A stretch of DNA of 32,000 nt from an uncultured delta proteobacterium. Lineage in GTDB: Bacteria; Desulfobacterota; Syntrophobacteria; Syntrophobacterales; Syntrophobacteraceae. Location: NCBI GenBank assembly GCA_963717485.1, contig OY970341.1, positions 1,316,067 to 1,348,066 on the forward strand. The letters run 5' to 3'. How positions within the stretch are numbered: position 1 is the stretch's first letter; the number at the start of each line of letters is the position of its first letter. Made by a program: the position numbers and the translations under genes. The notes beneath the pieces are model-generated. The model searched no databases. It had not been told where the DNA came from and worked only from the letters and a program-made list of their open reading frames with translations. Positions 11,622-26,852 of the stretch are shown in pieces.

Positions 11622-11685
11622 CTAATCCTCGACCGGGACTTTTTTTGATCTCTCCTGTTTCTGGATGCTACTGCTGCCGCTTGGG
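11622..11685 (-). repeat. arfB remnant R3 (3' tail of arfB), direct repeat of 12301-12363
   Basis: ctaatcCtcgacCgggactttttttgaTctctcctgtttCtggatgc vs ctaatcTtcgacAgggactttttttgaCctctcctgtttTtggatgc. It translates ..IQKQERSKKVPVED*, as does the ArfB C-terminus. The toxin's last codons and stop lie inside it. Confidence 0.8.
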
Positions 11686-11973
11686 AATTCGTGTCTTCCA
11701 GGATTGGGGCTCACGGTGAAGATGCATGATGGCAATGATGAGCAGGGTCTTGCCCCTGATCTGATAGATGATTCCATATGGAAAGCGCTTCGTGCGACAG
11801 CGCCTTGTTCTCTTTGAAACCAAGGGCCAAGCTTCAGGGTATTCGGCGATTCTGACGATTGTTGCCTTGACCTCATCAGAGAACTCGAAACCAAGTCCTT
11901 CAGTTTGGGCATTATAGTAATGGACGGCCTCGATGAATTCTGATTGTGCCGGCTCAAGGAACCGGACGTTCAT
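11668..11973 (-). CDS. Type II toxin, RelE/ParE family
   Basis: 101 aa. ParE-like pattern (FLEPAQSEFIEAVHYY ... RFPYGIIYQIRGKTLLIIAIMHLHREP). Start overlaps the antitoxin stop (ATGA at 11970-11973). Confidence 0.8.
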   Translation of the reverse strand: MNVRFLEPAQSEFIEAVHYYNAQTEGLGFEFSDEVKATIVRIAEYPEAWPLVSKRTRRCRTKRFPYGIIYQIRGKTLLIIAIMHLHREPQSWKTRIPKRQQ

Positions 11974-12200
11974 CGGGGCTTCTTATCCATCTGCTCAAAA
12001 ACTTGCCTGGCGGAAATGGCCTGAATTTCGCCGCGGTCAAATGCATCCAACCGCTCTTCCGCCTCTTTCCCCCACAACGCGTCTATTGCCTCTTGAGATG
12101 GCAGGTCCAGGCTCGACAGGAGACTCTCTGCGATTTCTGCCCGCTCGGCAGGGGTGAGCGATAATGCCTCTTTGAGAACCTCTGTGCCTTTAGATGACAT
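11970..12200 (-). CDS. Type II antitoxin ('addiction module component' / Unstab_antitox-like)
   Basis: 76 aa. LSLTPAERAEIAESLLSSL...WGKEAEERLDAFDRGEI is the typical pattern of this antitoxin family. AAGAAAGGA SD upstream. Confidence 0.75.
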   Translation of the reverse strand: MSSKGTEVLKEALSLTPAERAEIAESLLSSLDLPSQEAIDALWGKEAEERLDAFDRGEIQAISARQVFEQMDKKPR

Positions 12201-12300
12201 GCTAATCGATCCTTTCTTGCCAAAATTCTAACACAAAAGGGTAGCTTAGAGCGAGATGGTTTTGCCTTATGCAACTGACCGGGCGATGAGTGCCTTCCGG

Positions 12301-14253: not shown

Positions 14254-14511
14254 TTAGCCGTGTATTTCCTGGGCAATCTCAACGGCGCCGCTCACGAAAG
14301 CCAGGGCGATGCATCGGGCGTAATCCTCACTGAGAGCGTCCCCCTCAAGCCTTTCGTGTTCGTAGCTCTCGCAGCTCTGGCAGGAAAACCCTGGCCATTT
14401 ATTACGAATGGTGTGGTCGAGACATTCACCATAGTTTCGGCAGAACACGTTTCGCCTCACCTTGTCGCAACTTTCCACAGCCATGTAGCGTTCCGGTTTC
14501 CTACTTCCCAC
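14254..14511 (-). CDS. Cys-rich small protein of unknown function (85 aa)
   Basis: GTG 14511 lies 5 nt after GAGGAGG. Six Cys, including C-x7-C-x5-C-x13-C-x2-C (SCDKVRRNVFCRNYGECLDHTIRNKWPGFSCQSC). I recognise no family. Confidence 0.55.
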   Translation of the reverse strand: MGSRKPERYMAVESCDKVRRNVFCRNYGECLDHTIRNKWPGFSCQSCESYEHERLEGDALSEDYARCIALAFVSGAVEIAQEIHG

Positions 14512-14773: not shown

Positions 14774-15835
14774 TCATTTGTTTTGGGCCTCCGGCTGACC
14801 GGAGTGATTAAGAACATTCACCAGCACTTCGACTTTTGCATCAGGGCTGAGATCCGTTTCGATTTTCAGGACAGCCTGTTTGCGGGACCCGGCCGGAACA
14901 TTCTCCAGCTTTGGCTGGACCTCGAGGATGAAGCCCGTTTGATCTTCCAACGTCTCCTGCCAGACCGACATCAGGTTCTGGTCATAGGTTAGCCGGGTAA
15001 TCTCAAAAGGTTTGTTCCGATTGCTGACCACCACCACTCTGCCAACACGTTCCGGCTGGCCGGTGCACAGTTTTCCGATCAGAATATTTTGCGGCTTTGC
15101 GGAGATCTCGCCCTCGATAAACCCACTCACACGGATGATTATGTCAGGTTTCTGAGCCAGATCGGTATCCAACTTGATAAACCCGCCGTAGTTTCCATTA
15201 CTTATCTTATTGGAAACCCTCAGTCTGTAGTGCTCTCCCTCTGCGACTGTTTCGAGTGTGTAGGCTATGTCTTCACTGAGGTTGCTCTCAGTGCCTGAAA
15301 TATGAAAAGGAGTAGATCCCTCCAGGTCCAAAACGGATTCGGAGAGCTGGTCGGGCATTCCCCTAAACAAAATGTTCGTTGAAGGTTTGACATCGACAAT
15401 GGCCTGAACAGTCCCCTCGATCCTTACGACCATTTCCGGGTTATTCGGATCGTTGCTCAGGACGGTTGCCTTTTTGAGAACCTTCCCCTGAAAGTTTTTC
15501 AGGTTTACCTTCACTATCACCTTTCCCTCGCCACCGGGAGGGATTGCCGGATCGAACCGGGCGGCTGTGCACCCTCACTCAACCCGGACGCGCTCAATAT
15601 TGAGCGGGACCTTCCCGGTGTTTCTGACGGTGAATTCGTGTTCTATCTCGGTGCCTTCCATGACCACGCCGAAATCATATTCGGGCTGCTTTATCTGAAT
15701 CGACGGCTGAGCCGTGGCCGCAGGAGCCTGGTGCTTTGCACTTGGCGCCGTTGTTGCGGTGAATGCGGGCGAGGAGCAAAAAGCGATGCAAAGAGCGACA
15801 GCGATAGTAGTTTTTTTCCGAGCGCAAGTTTTCAT
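14774..15835 (-). CDS. DUF1573-domain secreted protein with an in-frame UGA (15575-15577) at the conserved Cys position; selenoprotein candidate or nonsense pseudogene
   Basis: Track ORFs 15575..15835 and 14774..15520 share one frame. Read through, the sequence is signal peptide - YDFGVVMEGTEIEHEFTVRNTGKVPLNIERVRVE-UGA-GCTAARFDPAIPPGGEGKVIVKVN. DUF1573 proteins have ..SCGCT.. at this point. The downstream part has no start, SD or signal peptide of its own. Confidence 0.65.
15524..15560 (-). promoter_or_regulatory. Candidate SECIS-like hairpins downstream of the UGA
   Basis: mRNA sense. CCGG-UUCGAU-CCGG (15560-15547) has its loop starting 18 nt after the UGA. UCCCUC-CCGGUGGC-GAGGGA (15543-15524) is a 6-bp stem whose loop can refold to a GGU apical triloop about 39 nt after the UGA. 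Confidence 0.3.
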
Positions 15836-15929
15836 TCGGTTTCCCTTCAGGTACGGACATCGGATATTTGAACTCAGAGGGCTGATATCGCAATTTGTAA
15901 ACTCATGTCTTCGCCCTCCGGCAATCGTC

Positions 15930-17096
15930 TCACTTGTTCATCAGGTCATGGACTGCAACGATCTCGATTCCTTTTTCACCGAAATAAGCAGCCCCTTCCT
16001 GCAATGATCTTAAAGTTGTCTTACGAGGATGTCCAATAGCGAGAGCCGTGCCACGGATCTTGGCTATCTCCACAAGTCGTGCAATTTGGGAGCGAATGGC
16101 TTCCGCAGATGGATCGTCATCAAGAAAAACGTCACGCTTAAGGGTCGGAATCTTCAGTTCCCGTGCCACTTTCCACCCTTTGCTCTCATTGGTCGTCATA
16201 CTGTCGACAAAAAAGAGACCGCGTCCTTTGATCTCAGAGAGTACGGTTTTCATGACCTGGGCATCTCGGGTCATCCGCGAGCCCATGTGGTTGTTGACCC
16301 CATCGAAGTAAGGGGAAGTATCGAGGGCCGCCTTGATGTTCAGTCGTATTTGATCGGCCGGCATTGAAAGCATGAGCGCCCCGGGGCCCGGGTTCTCTTT
16401 GGGGTTCAAAGGCTCCATCGGAAGGTGAAGCATGACTTCCCTGCCTTCCAGATGGGCGAGTTCTGCGATCTCGCGGCTGTGCGCCAGGTGTGGCAAAACA
16501 GACAAGGTCACAGGGAAAGGAAGCGAGGCGAATTGTTTGGCGATCCCTACGTCGATTCCAAAATCGTCTATAACGATTGAAACTTTCGCCCGCGTAGGCG
16601 AGATATCCGGGGAGGCCACGCCGGCGGGTTGAGGCGGGGGCTTGGCCTTGGGCGCGTAGGCGAGAGGAGGTAAAGCTTGGCGCAAGGGCAACTGAGCCGC
16701 ATTATCGCTGCCCAAAGGTGATCTTTCGGTCTTTTCTTCAGACTGTTCCACAACGGGGGGTAAATCGCTGAAATGTTCCCGTTTTGGGCTTGCCGGTTCC
16801 ACTTTAGCGCCTGATGGCGCAGTGCCGCCTTGGGAGTTTTTTGCCGTCTTCGGGTTCGACAGGTCGGCAGTCGCCGGATCAGGAAGGCGGCGGTTTTGTG
16901 CGGCGAAATAGATAAGAGACGTCAAAAATATGACCGCGACTGCCCATGCAACCAAAAGAGGAATCGGAGGCCTTTTTTTCGGGGCGGGGGGACCTCCCTT
17001 TGGACGGTCTTTTTTGCGCCCGCCCCGTGCCCTCGAGGTTTCAGTCCGTTTTCCCGGCGGCAAATTCTTTTTCTCCGGCTGCCTGCCTTGAGTCAT
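15930..17096 (-). CDS. Divergent polysaccharide deacetylase family protein (YibQ-like) with basic/Pro-rich N-terminus and one TM helix
   Basis: KVSIVIDDFGIDVGIAKQFASLPFPVTLSVLPHLAHSREIAELAHLEGREVMLHLPMEP matches the YibQ-type domain. It follows a CtpA-type protease, a common gene pairing. Confidence 0.8.
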   Translation of the reverse strand: MTQGRQPEKKNLPPGKRTETSRARGGRKKDRPKGGPPAPKKRPPIPLLVAWAVAVIFLTSLIYFAAQNRRLPDPATADLSNPKTAKNSQGGTAPSGAKVEPASPKREHFSDLPPVVEQSEEKTERSPLGSDNAAQLPLRQALPPLAYAPKAKPPPQPAGVASPDISPTRAKVSIVIDDFGIDVGIAKQFASLPFPVTLSVLPHLAHSREIAELAHLEGREVMLHLPMEPLNPKENPGPGALMLSMPADQIRLNIKAALDTSPYFDGVNNHMGSRMTRDAQVMKTVLSEIKGRGLFFVDSMTTNESKGWKVARELKIPTLKRDVFLDDDPSAEAIRSQIARLVEIAKIRGTALAIGHPRKTTLRSLQEGAAYFGEKGIEIVAVHDLMNK

Positions 17097-17126: not shown

Positions 17127-18446
17127 TTACTTGTTTTGCGTTTGAGCCAGTATTCTGTAGCCCTTGAGCAGATCGAGCGCCCGCCGCACCTGGTTGTCCC
17201 CTTCAACCAATTTCTTCCCATTTGAGGGAGCACCCGTTTCCCCCTTGCTCTGAGTCTCCAGCTTCTGGTTTTCCATATGCCTCGGGAGATCTTTTTCCCG
17301 AATACGCATCAAGTCTTCGCCCTGAGTCTCTTCGCCTTTCGGACTCTCCTTTTTTACTACGATGTCGGGCGTGATTCCCTTGGCCTGAATGGACTTGCCC
17401 GAAGGAGTATAGTAGAGCGATGTGGTAAGCCTGAGGGCTGAGCCGTCGTTGAGCGGAATAACCGTCTGAACCGAGCCCTTGCCGAAGGTCTGCTCACCCA
17501 TGATAATGGCTCTTTTGTGGTCCTGGAGCGCTCCTGCAACGATCTCCGAGGCGCTCGCCGACCCCGAATTAACCAGCACTACAATCGGATAGGTCTTTGG
17601 CTTTGCTTTCTTGTGGGCCTCGAAACGCATTTTTTGGTTTTCAAGCCGTCCACCAGTGTACACGATCAGCCCTTCGTCCAAGAACTCATCGCTCACTTCG
17701 ACCGCCTGATCGAGCAGACCGCCTGGATCGTTTCTCAAATCGACTACCAGTCCCTCTAGCCCTGGATTCTCAGATTCGAGTTGGCTAAGCGCCTTTCGCA
17801 GATCGTTTGCCGTTCCGCTCTGGAAACTCGAAATCCTGACGTAGCCGAACCCGGGCTCAAGTGAGCTTGACTTTACACTCTGAATTGTGATGATGTCCCG
17901 GACCAGTTCAAATTCGAGCGGTTTCTGCTTGCCTTTCCTCAAGATCGTCAGCTTCACCTTGCTGCCCTTGGGGCCTCTCATCTTCTGCACCGCGTCCATC
18001 AGGGACATGTCCTGGGTGGGCAGGTCATCGATTTTCAGGATCTGATCATTCGACTGAATGCCGGCTTTATCAGCCGGAGTATCTTCGAGCGGGGAGACAA
18101 CCGTCAAAATGTTGTCCCGAATGGTTATCTCTATTCCAAGGCCGCCGAACTTTCCCTTCGTCTCGATCTGAAGTTCCTTGTAATCCTCAGGCTTCAGAAA
18201 TGAAGAATGCGGGTCGAGTTCCCGAAGCATGCCGGTTATAGCCCCGTACATAAGCTTCTTCTGATCGGTCTTTTCTACGTAGTTGTCCTGTACGATTGAG
18301 ATGACGTCGCTGAAGAGCTTCAAATACTGATAGGCGTCCTGGTTTTCCGGGGTAGTTGTCTTGGCCTTGAGAGTCGGCCATCCACCGAGGGCCAAAATCA
18401 CTGATGCGGCTGCAATGAGAAGTAAAAGTTTGCGGGTCTTCGACAT
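17127..18446 (-). CDS. ctpA: Carboxy-terminal processing protease (S41 family, PDZ domain)
   Basis: Signal anchor, PDZ block (GGLGIEITIRDNILTVVSPLEDTPADKAGIQSNDQILKID), and S41 catalytic blocks (VVLVNSGSASASEIVAGALQD, GEQTFGKGSVQ). Confidence 0.9.
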   Translation of the reverse strand: MSKTRKLLLLIAAASVILALGGWPTLKAKTTTPENQDAYQYLKLFSDVISIVQDNYVEKTDQKKLMYGAITGMLRELDPHSSFLKPEDYKELQIETKGKFGGLGIEITIRDNILTVVSPLEDTPADKAGIQSNDQILKIDDLPTQDMSLMDAVQKMRGPKGSKVKLTILRKGKQKPLEFELVRDIITIQSVKSSSLEPGFGYVRISSFQSGTANDLRKALSQLESENPGLEGLVVDLRNDPGGLLDQAVEVSDEFLDEGLIVYTGGRLENQKMRFEAHKKAKPKTYPIVVLVNSGSASASEIVAGALQDHKRAIIMGEQTFGKGSVQTVIPLNDGSALRLTTSLYYTPSGKSIQAKGITPDIVVKKESPKGEETQGEDLMRIREKDLPRHMENQKLETQSKGETGAPSNGKKLVEGDNQVRRALDLLKGYRILAQTQNK

Positions 18447-25629: not shown

Positions 25630-26148
25630 CTACTTGAGTAGATTCATCGGGTCCGAGGGCAGTCGGTTGCCTTCGTATTTGACCTTTCCGTTTTTGTCCA
25701 GCAAGACGAAATGGGGTATTCCCTCCACCCGATAGGAACGCGTGACCTTCGTATCAGCGTCATATAAGACGGTATAAGGCGCAGGATTGGCATCTTCGAA
25801 ACGCTTCACCTTCTCCAGCGAATCTCCGCTGCCTACATTGATTGCAAATATTTCAAGATCGGCATCGGGGACGGACTTCCGCAGCTCGATTACCGCAGGG
25901 CGCGCAGCCAGGCAAAAATGGCACCATGTGGCCCAGAAATAGAGAAGAACCGGCTTTTGTCCTTTAAACTGGCTTAGAGTTACGGTTGTTCCATTCAGGT
26001 CCTGGAGCTGAAAATCAGGCGTAGCTACAGCCTGCGCCGTCTCTTTTTGCTCGTCAGCGACGGCCGGTAAACCGATTAGAACCGTTATCAACAAAATGAA
26101 GGAAAAGAAAAGCGCCCCGAACATTGTGCCGCTTTTAAAACAGTTCAT
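25630..26148 (-). CDS. TlpA/ResA-like periplasmic thiol:disulfide oxidoreductase
   Basis: Signal anchor then a thioredoxin fold with WCHFC (LLYFWATWCHFCLAARP). ATG 26148 overlaps the ccdA stop (ATGA). Confidence 0.8.
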   Translation of the reverse strand: MNCFKSGTMFGALFFSFILLITVLIGLPAVADEQKETAQAVATPDFQLQDLNGTTVTLSQFKGQKPVLLYFWATWCHFCLAARPAVIELRKSVPDADLEIFAINVGSGDSLEKVKRFEDANPAPYTVLYDADTKVTRSYRVEGIPHFVLLDKNGKVKYEGNRLPSDPMNLLK

Positions 26149-26852
26149 ATTAAAAACCCTCCACTCTTTACGAGGAAATATTCCGCCGCCAGAATCATAA
26201 GCACTCCGAAGACCCTCTGCACCCGAATCATCCATATCCCGGATCGCGGCAACGAGGTGAGCAATCCGGTGAACGTACCCACTATAATCACGAGCGCGCC
26301 CAACCCGATTGAAAAAGAGAAAAGCATTCCAACCCCAAGGGCGATCTGGTGCTGCGCCGCAACCATGGCCAGAAGAACGCCCAGAACGGGGGTGGTGCAG
26401 GTACTCACCACTAAAGCCGATGCCCCGCCAAGTATCATGCTGGTAAAAACATCGTGGCCGGAAAACTCCTTCACCCTCAGGCTATTGAGAAAACCGGGAG
26501 GTGCAAGGGGGACCGCATCGAGCATCACGAGCCCGAAAAAAAGGCAAAGATTGCCAACGATAAGATAAGCCCAGAGGCTGGCGGTAAGAGCCCCGAACAA
26601 CTGTCCGGTCAGGGCCGCAAAAATGGCTAAAGCTGAATAAACAATCGCCATGCCCAGGACATAAAAAAGCGAAAGCAAAAACCCCCTGCGCCTGCTGCCG
26701 TTCGCCTTCCCGCCGATAAAGGCAACCGTTATCGGCATCATGGGATAGGTGCATGGGGTAAAGCTCGCCAGAACGCCTCCGGCAAACGAAAGAAGTATTG
26801 CAAGCCACGGGGAGCTGCGAGCGATGCCCTCGAAATGGCTGATCCACTCCAT
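26145..26852 (-). CDS. ccdA: Cytochrome c biogenesis / DsbD-type thiol-disulfide transporter CcdA
   Basis: Six-TM protein with SFTPCTYPMMP and a second conserved Cys (VVSTCTTPV). Confidence 0.85.
   Translation of the reverse strand: MEWISHFEGIARSSPWLAILLSFAGGVLASFTPCTYPMMPITVAFIGGKANGSRRRGFLLSLFYVLGMAIVYSALAIFAALTGQLFGALTASLWAYLIVGNLCLFFGLVMLDAVPLAPPGFLNSLRVKEFSGHDVFTSMILGGASALVVSTCTTPVLGVLLAMVAAQHQIALGVGMLFSFSIGLGALVIIVGTFTGLLTSLPRSGIWMIRVQRVFGVLMILAAEYFLVKSGGFLI

Follow-up and report, generated by a model that had tools for sequence, protein, structure and literature searches.

A probable selenocysteine codon in a DUF1573 gene of the OS_HP2 family from an uncultured Syntrophobacteraceae-type bacterium

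In the window analyzed here (the whole 32,000-nucleotide stretch of contig OY970341.1), two open reading frames (ORFs) lie in the same frame on either side of a TGA, and the question is whether they are two genes, the remains of one, or a single gene in which UGA encodes selenocysteine (Sec). By its sequence, ORFs, and translation, the minus strand from 15835 to 14774 is a single 353-codon frame whose sole interruption is the TGA at 15577..15575. The 86-aa ORF (15835..15575, minus strand) ends in this TGA, the 248-aa ORF (15520..14774, minus strand) starts with a GTG in the same frame, and exactly 18 sense codons (15574..15521) separate them, as an earlier sequence-only reading of this DNA had described. 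The joined translation around the UGA, NIERVRVE*GCTAARFDPAIPPGGEGKVIVKVN with the stop as an asterisk or RVRVE-U-GCTAARFDP with U inserted, is identical to the one quoted there. We conclude that 15835..14774 is very probably a single gene of the OS_HP2 / DUF1573 selenoprotein family, from an uncultured Syntrophobacteraceae-type bacterium of peat or wetland. Table 1 lists the features of the locus.

Table 1. Coordinates of the candidate selenoprotein gene, its RNA and protein features, and the neighboring genes
Feature	Position	Strand	Remarks
Complete gene, probable selenoprotein	14774..15835	-	353 codons + TGA stop; ATG 15835..15833; Sec = codon 87
Terminator TGA of the gene	14776..14774	-	stop-codon usage
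Shine-Dalgarno-like GAAGGGA	15842..15848	-	6-7 nt 5' of ATG; by eye from the sequence
Putative N-terminal export signal MKTCARKKTTIAVALCIAFCSSPAFTA	15755..15835	-	about residues 1-27
DUF1573 / OS_HP2 Ig-like domain	15407..15700	-	residues 46-143; UGA inside
In-frame UGA, probable Sec codon 87	15575..15577	-	first position of U-G-C; sequence and column alignment
UGC codon, Cys89	15569..15571	-	partner of Sec87 in U-G-C; Cys in 61/61 unique Sec forms; invariant C88 in Cys homologues
Two more Ig-like beta-sandwich domains (predicted)	14801..15400	-	about residues 146-345; no Pfam match; AF2 model of homologue
Internal GTG, false start of the 248-aa fragment	15518..15520	-	chosen by gene callers
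Hairpin 1, best SECIS candidate	15543..15565	-	family-level stem = columns 13-35 from U of UGA
Hairpin 2, over the IPPGGEG codons	15524..15543	-	CCCUCCC-GGU-GG(C)GAGGG; 7-bp stem, bulged C, loop GGN
YibQ-like divergent polysaccharide deacetylase	15930..17096	-	Pfam; co-directional, upstream
CtpA S41 protease	17127..18446	-	Pfam; co-directional, upstream
85-aa Cys-rich ORF	14254..14511	-	downstream; in 22/35 loci; called as an 84-87-aa gene elsewhere

For the family assignment, the protein was scanned against profiles with U entered as C. PF07610 (DUF1573) matched residues 46-143 over profile positions 1-98/98 (E 5e-23, 81.3 bits vs 26.1), and NCBIfam NF041425, named "OS_HP2 family (seleno)protein", matched residues 49-144 over profile positions 2-98/98 with 112.4 bits vs a curated cutoff of 100. 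No Pfam match was obtained past residue 143. The sequence-only reading had named a CGCT motif in DUF1573 domains and had placed the UGA on its first Cys. The motif proved real, as C86-G87-C88-T89 is invariant in 24 full-length Cys homologues. In the alignment, G88 of the window protein pairs with G87 of the homologue P0004, which puts the UGA on the first Cys of CGCT, where the conserved CxC motif (UxC/UGC in the literature on pfam07610) begins. CGC occupies the motif columns in 82 of 88 more distant DUF1573 cluster representatives, and a further 44 are truncated, their first residue lying 3-4 codons past the Sec/Cys column. Cys homologues at the U-G-C column, together with further independent TGA homologues, are the pattern that the criterion of PMC1976440 describes.

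The site set used for comparison comprised 101 related sites from Syntrophobacteraceae-type MAGs and from peat or wetland metagenomes, plus the window. The Sec codon column has TGA at 80 of these sites and TGC or TGT at 21, and the 66-mers compared comprised 61 unique Sec forms and 15 unique Cys forms. All of the nearest relatives are MAGs of Syntrophobacteraceae or Syntrophobacterales. Some members of the clade carry U-M-C.

Two hairpins after the UGA, one with a GGU loop, had been noted from the sequence alone, with the remark that neither is a textbook SECIS element. Both were found (hairpins 1 and 2), and we agree with the remark: neither gives a clean fit to the E. coli fdhF type, and Rfam returned no match for the whole window at gathering thresholds or for 15480..15600 at E up to 10. 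Folded singly, the post-UGA region of the window did not outperform shuffled sequences (z +0.73 and +0.88, the latter from the dinucleotide shuffle for hairpin 1). Due to this result of one-sequence thermodynamics, comparative tests were adopted.

Hairpin 1 was defined by hand because its stem occurs in two registers, which belong to different subclades. The stem begins about 12 nt past the UGA (column 13-16, 10-13 nt across the family), and the loop, at columns 20-28, is 17-25 nt from the UGA. This agrees with the bSECISearch spacing, which sets the hairpin about 11 nt 3' of the UGA and the apical loop roughly 16-37 nt from it. The stem contains compensatory pairs with a covariation score above that of 500/500 shuffles, and 79-83% of cells are paired vs about 40-60% with the partners slid. 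The mean stability was -9.5 kcal/mol in Sec forms vs -4.0 kcal/mol in Cys forms (Mann-Whitney p 3e-8; here, as in all Sec vs Cys comparisons, p-values are overstated because the sequences compared are phylogenetically related). The synonymous recodings of Sec forms averaged -5.3 kcal/mol, and this gain of about 4 kcal/mol over recodings is restricted to the Sec forms. Four loci (L021, L023, L028, and L033) have 7-bp stems of differing sequence. The loops across the family read UUCGAU, UACGAU, or AUUUYGAYN, with U22, G25, and A26 invariant, but this G stands four to six positions into the loop.

In the window itself, hairpin 1 is weak (-6.3 kcal/mol), and 23% of its synonymous recodings equal it. 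Only the upper part pairs, from 15562 to 15546, as a G-C pair, a bulged C, CCGG/CCGG, and the loop UUCGAU, and two lower-stem pairs that relatives retain are lost. The bulged base, C17, is present only in the window's subclade. RNA folding had been proposed as a check in the sequence-only reading. At the family level there is a SECIS-like stem-loop just 3' of the UGA, Sec-specific and with compensatory changes, whereas the hairpin of the window alone is not significant.

Hairpin 2 lies 33 nt downstream (15542..15525 in the window, with loop GGU), and its loop, 39 nt from the UGA, is just beyond the bSECISearch spacing. RNAalifold on 32 Sec forms returned this hairpin alone, without covariation, and its stability is nearly equal in Sec and Cys forms (-10.6 vs -9.4). 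The paired synonymous sites differ, as column 36 is C in 61/61 Sec forms and column 39 is U in 59/61, against 10/15 and 9/15 in the Cys forms (Fisher p 1.6e-4 and 5e-4), and column 45, in the loop, is fully degenerate. The idea that the PPGGEG codons alone account for hairpin 2 was partly rejected: the hairpin is still there in the Cys forms, but fixation of the synonymous paired sites is confined to the Sec forms. Hairpin 2 may belong to the SECIS element as an accessory or an extension.

The genes selA, selB, selC, and selD are absent from the 32-kb window and from the flanks of 35 related loci; none was found by Pfam annotation of about 30 window ORFs, and no tRNA-Sec was found in the window or in the 35 locus flanks. 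The lineage points to Sec machinery in the source genome, as the largest prokaryotic selenoproteome known is that of Syntrophobacter fumaroxidans, with 31-39 genes (PMC1976440, PMC9312934). A search for a second selenoprotein gene gave no convincing candidate in the window, with every in-frame TGA read through, or in the flanks of the 35 loci; 11625..12227 was rejected as an antitoxin merely ending in TGA. TGA is the commonest ordinary stop codon, used by 11/24 window genes, and it terminates the Sec gene too. A global reassignment of UGA was rejected on this ground, and the recoding is local rather than due to an altered genetic code.

Decoding of the UGA without selenium would yield C-G-C or W-G-C instead of U-G-C, either by near-cognate Cys or Trp insertion or from tRNA(Sec) mis-charged with Cys. 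No Sec machinery was seen in the window or in the flanks of the 35 loci, and W is recorded at the Sec/Cys column in four distant representatives, both of which speak for such a readthrough. However, the W entries are more simply expected if genes were called with TGA as a Trp codon, and the conserved hairpin at canonical SECIS distance is specific to the TGA forms, which argues for a dedicated recoding signal. The lineage is also the richest known in selenoproteins, and the family is curated as a selenoprotein family (NF041425). Selenium-free readthrough is improbable.

The locus might also make two products, an 86-aa secreted fragment ending at the UGA and, after a restart at GTG 15520, a 248-aa cytoplasmic protein. 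Gene callers choose this GTG, 18 codons downstream, because the purine-rich GAGGGAAAG stretch precedes it, and the ORF is annotated in many databases; dozens of 246-252-aa entries (NCBI, JGI, ENA) span just the last 70% of the protein. The purine-rich stretch is, however, nothing more than the conserved GEGK codons. Between the UGA and the GTG, the 18 codons are kept as protein, with Cys89, Asp94, and PPGGEGK invariant or nearly so while third positions vary, and the Cys homologues are continuous, single unbroken ORFs of 347-396 aa. In addition, the GTG falls within a beta-strand of the DUF1573 domain. The sequence-only reading had held that the downstream half has no Shine-Dalgarno sequence, start, or export signal; it does lack a signal peptide and begins mid-domain, but a GTG start with a purine-rich stretch exists. 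Overall, we regard two separate products as highly improbable.

The sequence-only reading had named as its alternative a simple nonsense mutation from TGC or TGT to TGA, which would make the locus a pseudogene and its two ORFs decaying remnants. A single base change separates these codons, a 93%-identical Cys relative (P0001/L104) has TGT, and the hairpin of the window is not significant when folded alone. Nevertheless, the same TGA occurs at the 80 sites of the comparison set, in 31/35 species-level genome loci, and in orthologues down to about 43% identity, so that other genomes do carry TGA in this column, as the earlier reading had suggested looking for. Divergence on either side of the TGA shows a third-codon-position bias. 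Of the Sec loci long enough to include the stop codon, all except 3 keep the post-TGA frame intact over 258-335 codons. To judge from these substitutions, the reading frame 3' of the TGA is under purifying selection. A nonsense mutation would not pass with an intact frame through so many species, and the hairpin with its compensatory changes is specific to the TGA form. The pseudogene is scarcely credible, and the simple nonsense mutation can be set aside for practical purposes. Close relatives with TGC had been expected to count against Sec; such a relative exists in P0001/L104 (TGT), but three of the RNA positions fixed in Sec forms are gone there, and Sec/Cys interchange is the normal pattern among selenoprotein families. 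A sequencing or assembly error hiding a TGC or TGT is conceivable for one assembled sequence, but its chance is negligible, as the TGA recurs in two peat metagenome contigs, L036 and L037, which are independent and 98% identical to the window, and in dozens of other assemblies by different technologies.

The reading of the UGA as one half of a Sec/Cys pair, proposed from the sequence alone, is strongly supported by the invariant-Cys alignment, TGA in 80/101 sites, the selected frame, the Sec-specific hairpin, and the NF041425 match.

For the protein structure, we used the AF2 model of P0004, a 63%-identical Cys homologue. The model is all-beta with three domains (mean pLDDT 87.8); its CGC lies in a turn between strands 77-84 and 89-93, and a low-confidence helix occupies positions 1-35. 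Foldseek with this model returned only generic tandem Ig/ASH/cadherin-like arrays, which are uninformative on mechanism, and a PDB sequence search gave only marginal HYDIN matches. All full-length homologues have a hydrophobic N-terminus equivalent to that of the window protein, in which the putative export signal runs from a basic n-region through a hydrophobic core to an A-x-A-like end with a putative cleavage site. Immediately upstream lie the genes of the YibQ-like deacetylase (34/35 genome loci) and CtpA (32/35), and a Polysacc_deac_2 gene is upstream of Cys homologues as well. The 85-aa Cys-rich ORF had no Pfam match. One distant Cys homologue adjoins a DsbD_TM gene.

By analogy with the established bacterial mechanism, SelB-GTP with Sec-tRNA(Sec) would recode UGA codon 87 via hairpin 1, and the second hairpin over the IPPGGEG codons may assist. 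The comparisons show that translation continues past the UGA, completing the DUF1573 Ig-like domain and adding two further beta-sandwich domains. The putative N-terminal signal peptide would direct the protein to the periplasm, and the homologue model would place Sec87-Gly-Cys89 in domain 1, in the tight turn that links two beta-strands. Sec87 and Cys89 would most likely act as a selenol/thiol pair, either in redox chemistry through a selenenylsulfide or as ligands of a soft metal. The conserved order ctpA - yibQ-like deacetylase - OS_HP2 - small Cys-rich ORF suggests a cell-envelope role for the protein.

Two modestly new readings can be offered tentatively and are rather unlikely. In the first, the recoding signal may be bipartite, with hairpin 1 as the conventional SelB-binding hairpin and hairpin 2 as an obligatory second one, its paired synonymous sites being fixed in 59-61 of 61 Sec forms and relaxed in Cys forms. 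In the second, the Ig-fold protein with U-G-C may serve in the periplasm as a selenol/thiol oxidoreductase, or may bind a metal or metalloid, as a partner of CtpA and the YibQ-like deacetylase in cell-envelope maturation; if true, this would make it a redox selenoprotein with a fold other than thioredoxin. For annotation, the dozens of 246-252-aa "hypothetical protein" fragments, NCBI MAG entries included, should be merged to give selenoproteins of about 353 aa. The set of 61 Sec and 15 Cys unique sequences defines the recoding hairpin of the family and shows the ctpA-yibQ-OS_HP2 order; the first functional test of a DUF1573 selenoprotein could build on both.

Among known recoding signals, the SECIS of E. 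coli fdhF is a stem-loop directly 3' of the UGA, whose upper minihelix, about 11 nt downstream, binds SelB and in which the loop G/U and a bulged U are important. Hairpin 1 resembles it in being intracoding, in starting 12 nt past the UGA, in a single-nucleotide bulge in the 5' arm (in the window's subclade), in the invariant U...GA of its loop, and in its presence in Sec forms and absence from Cys forms. In contrast to fdhF, the loop is not GGUC-like, the bulged base is C, the stem has two registers, and a second conserved hairpin with a GGN triloop follows 33 nt downstream, at the edge of the usual spacing.

CxC motifs of thiol-disulfide proteins include the C-G-C tail of Erv2, the C-P-C of Mia40, and the CGC peptides that serve as PDI mimics. 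The window protein shares with them two chalcogen residues one residue apart in an exposed turn, a probable periplasmic location, and DsbD_TM beside one homologue; however, its family has an Ig-like beta-sandwich and not a thioredoxin or Erv fold. We know of no DUF1573 protein with known redox activity. It also differs from the thioredoxin-fold UxxC selenoproteins, as its motif is U-x-C, with one residue between, and the homologue model is all-beta and Ig-like. Domain 1 matches the HYDIN/ASH/PapD-like PF22544 (E 1.5e-11), and the best PDB folds are HYDIN-type central-apparatus proteins. These are, however, structural repeat arrays of eukaryotic cilia without CGC/UGC, and the likeness is in fold only.

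The closest known system is OS_HP2 itself. The sequence-only reading, unaware of DUF1573 as a selenoprotein family, had implied novelty, but the family has been established computationally since 2007 (Zhang & Gladyshev, PMC1976440), pfam07610 / UxC was tabulated in the GOS paper of 2008 (PMC2398784), and "DUF1573, UGC" is an entry in the reviews of 2022 and 2026 (PMC9312934, PMC13188914). Newness is thus small, as family, motif, and Sec/Cys pattern are already catalogued. These four papers report a selenium incorporation experiment for no member, and the literature on DUF1573 function holds only incidental mentions (Bacteroides iron stimulon, Tannerella vesicle proteome). The window protein shares with OS_HP2 the Pfam domain, a score above the NF041425 cutoff, U-G-C in the same column, abundant Cys homologues, and a deltaproteobacterial (Desulfobacterota-type) host. 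The founding members, however, came from the Olavius algarvensis delta1/delta4 symbionts and GOS ocean data, whereas the window belongs to a Syntrophobacteraceae lineage of peat or wetland, and its protein has two extra Ig-like domains, a ctpA-yibQ cluster, and a clade in which the Sec form predominates (31/35 genomes). These differences from the founders leave its class unchanged.

The minus-strand frame of the gene runs from an ATG at 15835 to a TGA stop at 14776..14774, and its sole interruption is the TGA at 15577..15575, codon 87. The mechanical ORF listing splits the gene into an 86-aa ORF and a 248-aa ORF, the latter from the GTG at 15520; both share one frame, with 18 sense codons between them. 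Translation across the UGA (..NIERVRVE-U-GCTAARFDPAIPPGGEGK..) gave the same joined sequence as the sequence-only reading. That reading had also described the downstream half as lacking a start, an SD, and an export signal. On the start and the SD this was slightly inaccurate, since a GTG does follow GAGGGAAAG there; the missing export signal was confirmed. The 248-aa ORF opens within a domain. Two separate genes with 86-aa and 248-aa products are very unlikely.

C86, G87, C88, and T89 were invariant in the alignment of 24 full-length Cys homologues. BLASTP paired G88 of the window protein with G87 of the homologue P0004, so the UGA falls at the C86 column, as had been proposed from the CGC motif. 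The 56 residues C-terminal of the UGA were run with HMMER, in a full scan, against 1.84 billion cluster representatives; of the 88 internal matches reaching the motif, 82 have CGC. Forty-four further representatives begin 3-4 codons past the Sec column, the signature of a TGA-truncated gene call. Four distant DUF1573 representatives (among P0091-P0240) have W-G-C at this column, where the gene caller probably turned TGA into Trp under an alternative genetic code. In one subclade, U-M-C replaces U-G-C (..RVRPE-U-MCTVARYD..; loci L006:5259, L011:5259, L017:5259, L044:1759, L045:428, and L054:841); therefore, the middle motif residue is not strictly Gly.

Scanning one genome per species gave 35 related loci, every one from a Syntrophobacteraceae or Syntrophobacterales-type MAG. 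Scanning metagenomes gave 58, chiefly from peat or wetland, and eleven look-ups of Cys homologues completed the set. The codon 87 column is TGA in 80 sites, the window counted, and TGC/TGT in 21. A pseudogene arising from a nonsense mutation in a DUF1573 gene is very unlikely: 31 of 35 species-level genomes share the TGA, with protein identity ranging between 87% and 43%, and, three excepted, every Sec locus that extends to the stop codon has an open downstream frame of 258-335 codons. Only L032:5263+, L034:5124+, and L056:203+ have frame breaks, 46-103 codons past the TGA. These are probably indel errors of long-read MAG assemblies, not pseudogenes; in L034, the protein carries on in another frame past the break. 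Divergence from the window at codon positions 1/2/3 was 0.19/0.24/0.48 per site upstream of the TGA and 0.23/0.16/0.40 downstream, with third positions holding most of it on either side. A sequencing error at the TGA is also very unlikely: two independent contigs, each 98% identical to the window, have the same TGA, and a base-call error is therefore ruled out. TGA is the commonest ordinary stop among the window genes (11/24) and also terminates the selenoprotein gene, so recoding must be local and context-dependent. A second TGA-containing paralogue (L033, CAVUGX010000032.1; 43% identity), without ctpA/yibQ neighbours, lies in the same MAG as L014; thus, at least some genomes hold two Sec-form DUF1573 genes.

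Folding recovered both small stem-loops that had been noticed 3' of the UGA, and they were tested on 32 Sec sequences, then extended to 61 unique ones. In distant orthologues, hairpin 1 has a 7-bp stem and a 7-9-nt loop, and its pairing is kept with wholly different sequences (GUCGCCC/GGGCGAU, GUUGCCC/GGGCAAU, and UGGUGGA/UCCACCA); the window's subclade has an upper CCGG/CCGG stem with a bulged C. Compensatory changes occur in 3-4 pairs, the covariation score exceeded 500/500 shuffles, and about 80% of cells were paired versus 40-60% with partners slid. Against protein-preserving synonymous recodings, Sec forms were 4.2 kcal/mol more stable (z -1.7), whereas Cys forms showed no extra stability (z about -0.3). 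The sequences are kin by descent, which inflates the p-values of the Sec versus Cys statistics, including that for raw hairpin 1 stability (-9.5 versus -4.0 kcal/mol, p 3e-8). In the window itself, hairpin 1 folds weakly (-6.3 kcal/mol), two lower-stem pairs having been lost. Hairpin 2 is about equally stable in Cys and Sec forms. Its paired, synonymous columns are fixed in Sec forms but relaxed in Cys forms: column 36 is C in 61/61 Sec versus 10/15 Cys forms, and column 39 is U in 59/61 versus 9/15. Column 45, in the loop, shows complete degeneracy. Rfam gave no match for the window or the post-UGA region. We read hairpin 1 as the putative SelB-binding SECIS, since a start 12 nt past the UGA is the canonical position, and hairpin 2 as a possible accessory element. 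The 93%-identical relative L104 (P0001, JGI Ga0187870_1037241; L104:1-180) has TGT and differs at three Sec-fixed RNA positions (column 30 G>U, column 36 C>U, and column 39 U>C). It illustrates in nature how RNA positions relax once Sec has given way to Cys, although a chimeric assembly is possible: the site sits where the contig ends, and the N-terminal portion looks like that of another subclade.

Features of the recoding region and the neighbourhood (window positions; columns are RNA positions counted from the U of the UGA)
Feature	Position	Strand	Remark
Hairpin 1	15565..15543	minus	columns 13-35; two registers among relatives
Hairpin 2	15542..15525	minus	columns 36-53; GGN loop, over conserved IPPGGEG codons
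Cys-rich 85-aa ORF (MGSRKPERYMAVESCDKVRRNVFCRNYGECLDH..)	14254-14511	minus	directly downstream of the selenoprotein gene; no Pfam match
Unstab_antitox (PF09720), 76 aa	11970-12200	minus	Pfam
111-aa ORF after the Unstab_antitox gene	11622-11957	minus	no Pfam match
CcdA/DsbD_TM membrane protein	26145-26852	minus	
TlpA/AhpC-like periplasmic thioredoxin	25630-26235	minus	overlaps the CcdA/DsbD_TM gene

The N-terminal stretch, MKTCARKKTTIAVALCIAFCSSPAFTA, resembles a signal peptide of the Sec pathway. As a structural proxy, the AlphaFold2 model of P0004 (63%-identical Cys homologue, mean pLDDT 87.8) is built of three beta-sandwich domains, with C-G-C in a four-residue turn joining strands 77-84 and 89-93. 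The fold search with this model returned only tandem Ig/ASH/cadherin-type arrays, and the PDB sequence search only marginal HYDIN matches. CtpA (S41 protease) and a YibQ-like divergent polysaccharide deacetylase are encoded immediately upstream and co-directionally in 32-34 of 35 genomes. The Cys-rich ORF is kept downstream in 22/35 related genomes, is also called beside Cys homologues (84-87 aa), and may encode a functional partner. A DsbD_TM (CcdA-like) gene directly upstream of one distant Cys homologue (L101:1-194, next to P0057) hints at a thiol-redox connection. The signal-like N-terminus, modelled turn, gene order, and DsbD_TM neighbour suggest a candidate periplasmic selenol/thiol function tied to the cell envelope. 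Elsewhere in the window, some 10 kb away from the selenoprotein gene, the overlapping CcdA/DsbD_TM and thioredoxin genes resemble a reducing pathway of the periplasm. A putative toxin-antitoxin pair lies at 11622-12200. No sel genes, tRNA-Sec, or second selenoprotein gene were found in the 32-kb window or the related-locus flanks. We infer Sec competence of the source genome from its lineage and the conservation pattern; Syntrophobacter fumaroxidans has the largest reported prokaryotic selenoproteome (PMC1976440, PMC9312934).

Taken together, the UGA at a conserved Cys, the TGA kept across relatives, and the hairpin favoured in Sec forms support the selenoprotein interpretation of the sequence-only reading. 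Profile scans were run with U entered as C. Pfam DUF1573 matched over its whole profile (residues 46-143, E 5e-23), and NCBIfam NF041425, "OS_HP2 family (seleno)protein", scored 112.4 bits, above the curated cutoff of 100. Public databases (NCBI, ENA, JGI) contain dozens of protein records of this gene, including P0002, P0006, P0007, P0019, P0021, P0030, P0033, P0037, P0042, and P0044, that are 246-252-aa fragments from the internal GTG, some titled 'hypothetical protein [Syntrophobacteraceae bacterium]'; the mis-annotation of this known family of selenoproteins is systematic. What remains of value is the mending of the many truncated ~248-aa entries, a definition of the recoding hairpins built by comparison, and the conserved ctpA-yibQ context. 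The earlier hint of a new family did not hold, as OS_HP2 has stood on record for nearly 20 years as a computational prediction (PMC1976440, PMC2398784). OS_HP2, "Olavius symbiont's hypothetical protein 2", was among the six new selenoprotein families of Zhang and Gladyshev 2007 (PMC1976440), and the 2008 GOS selenoproteome paper lists it under pfam07610, giving the motif as UxC and the number of Cys homologues as 354 (PMC2398784). The gene is thus a further member of this known, curated selenoprotein family.
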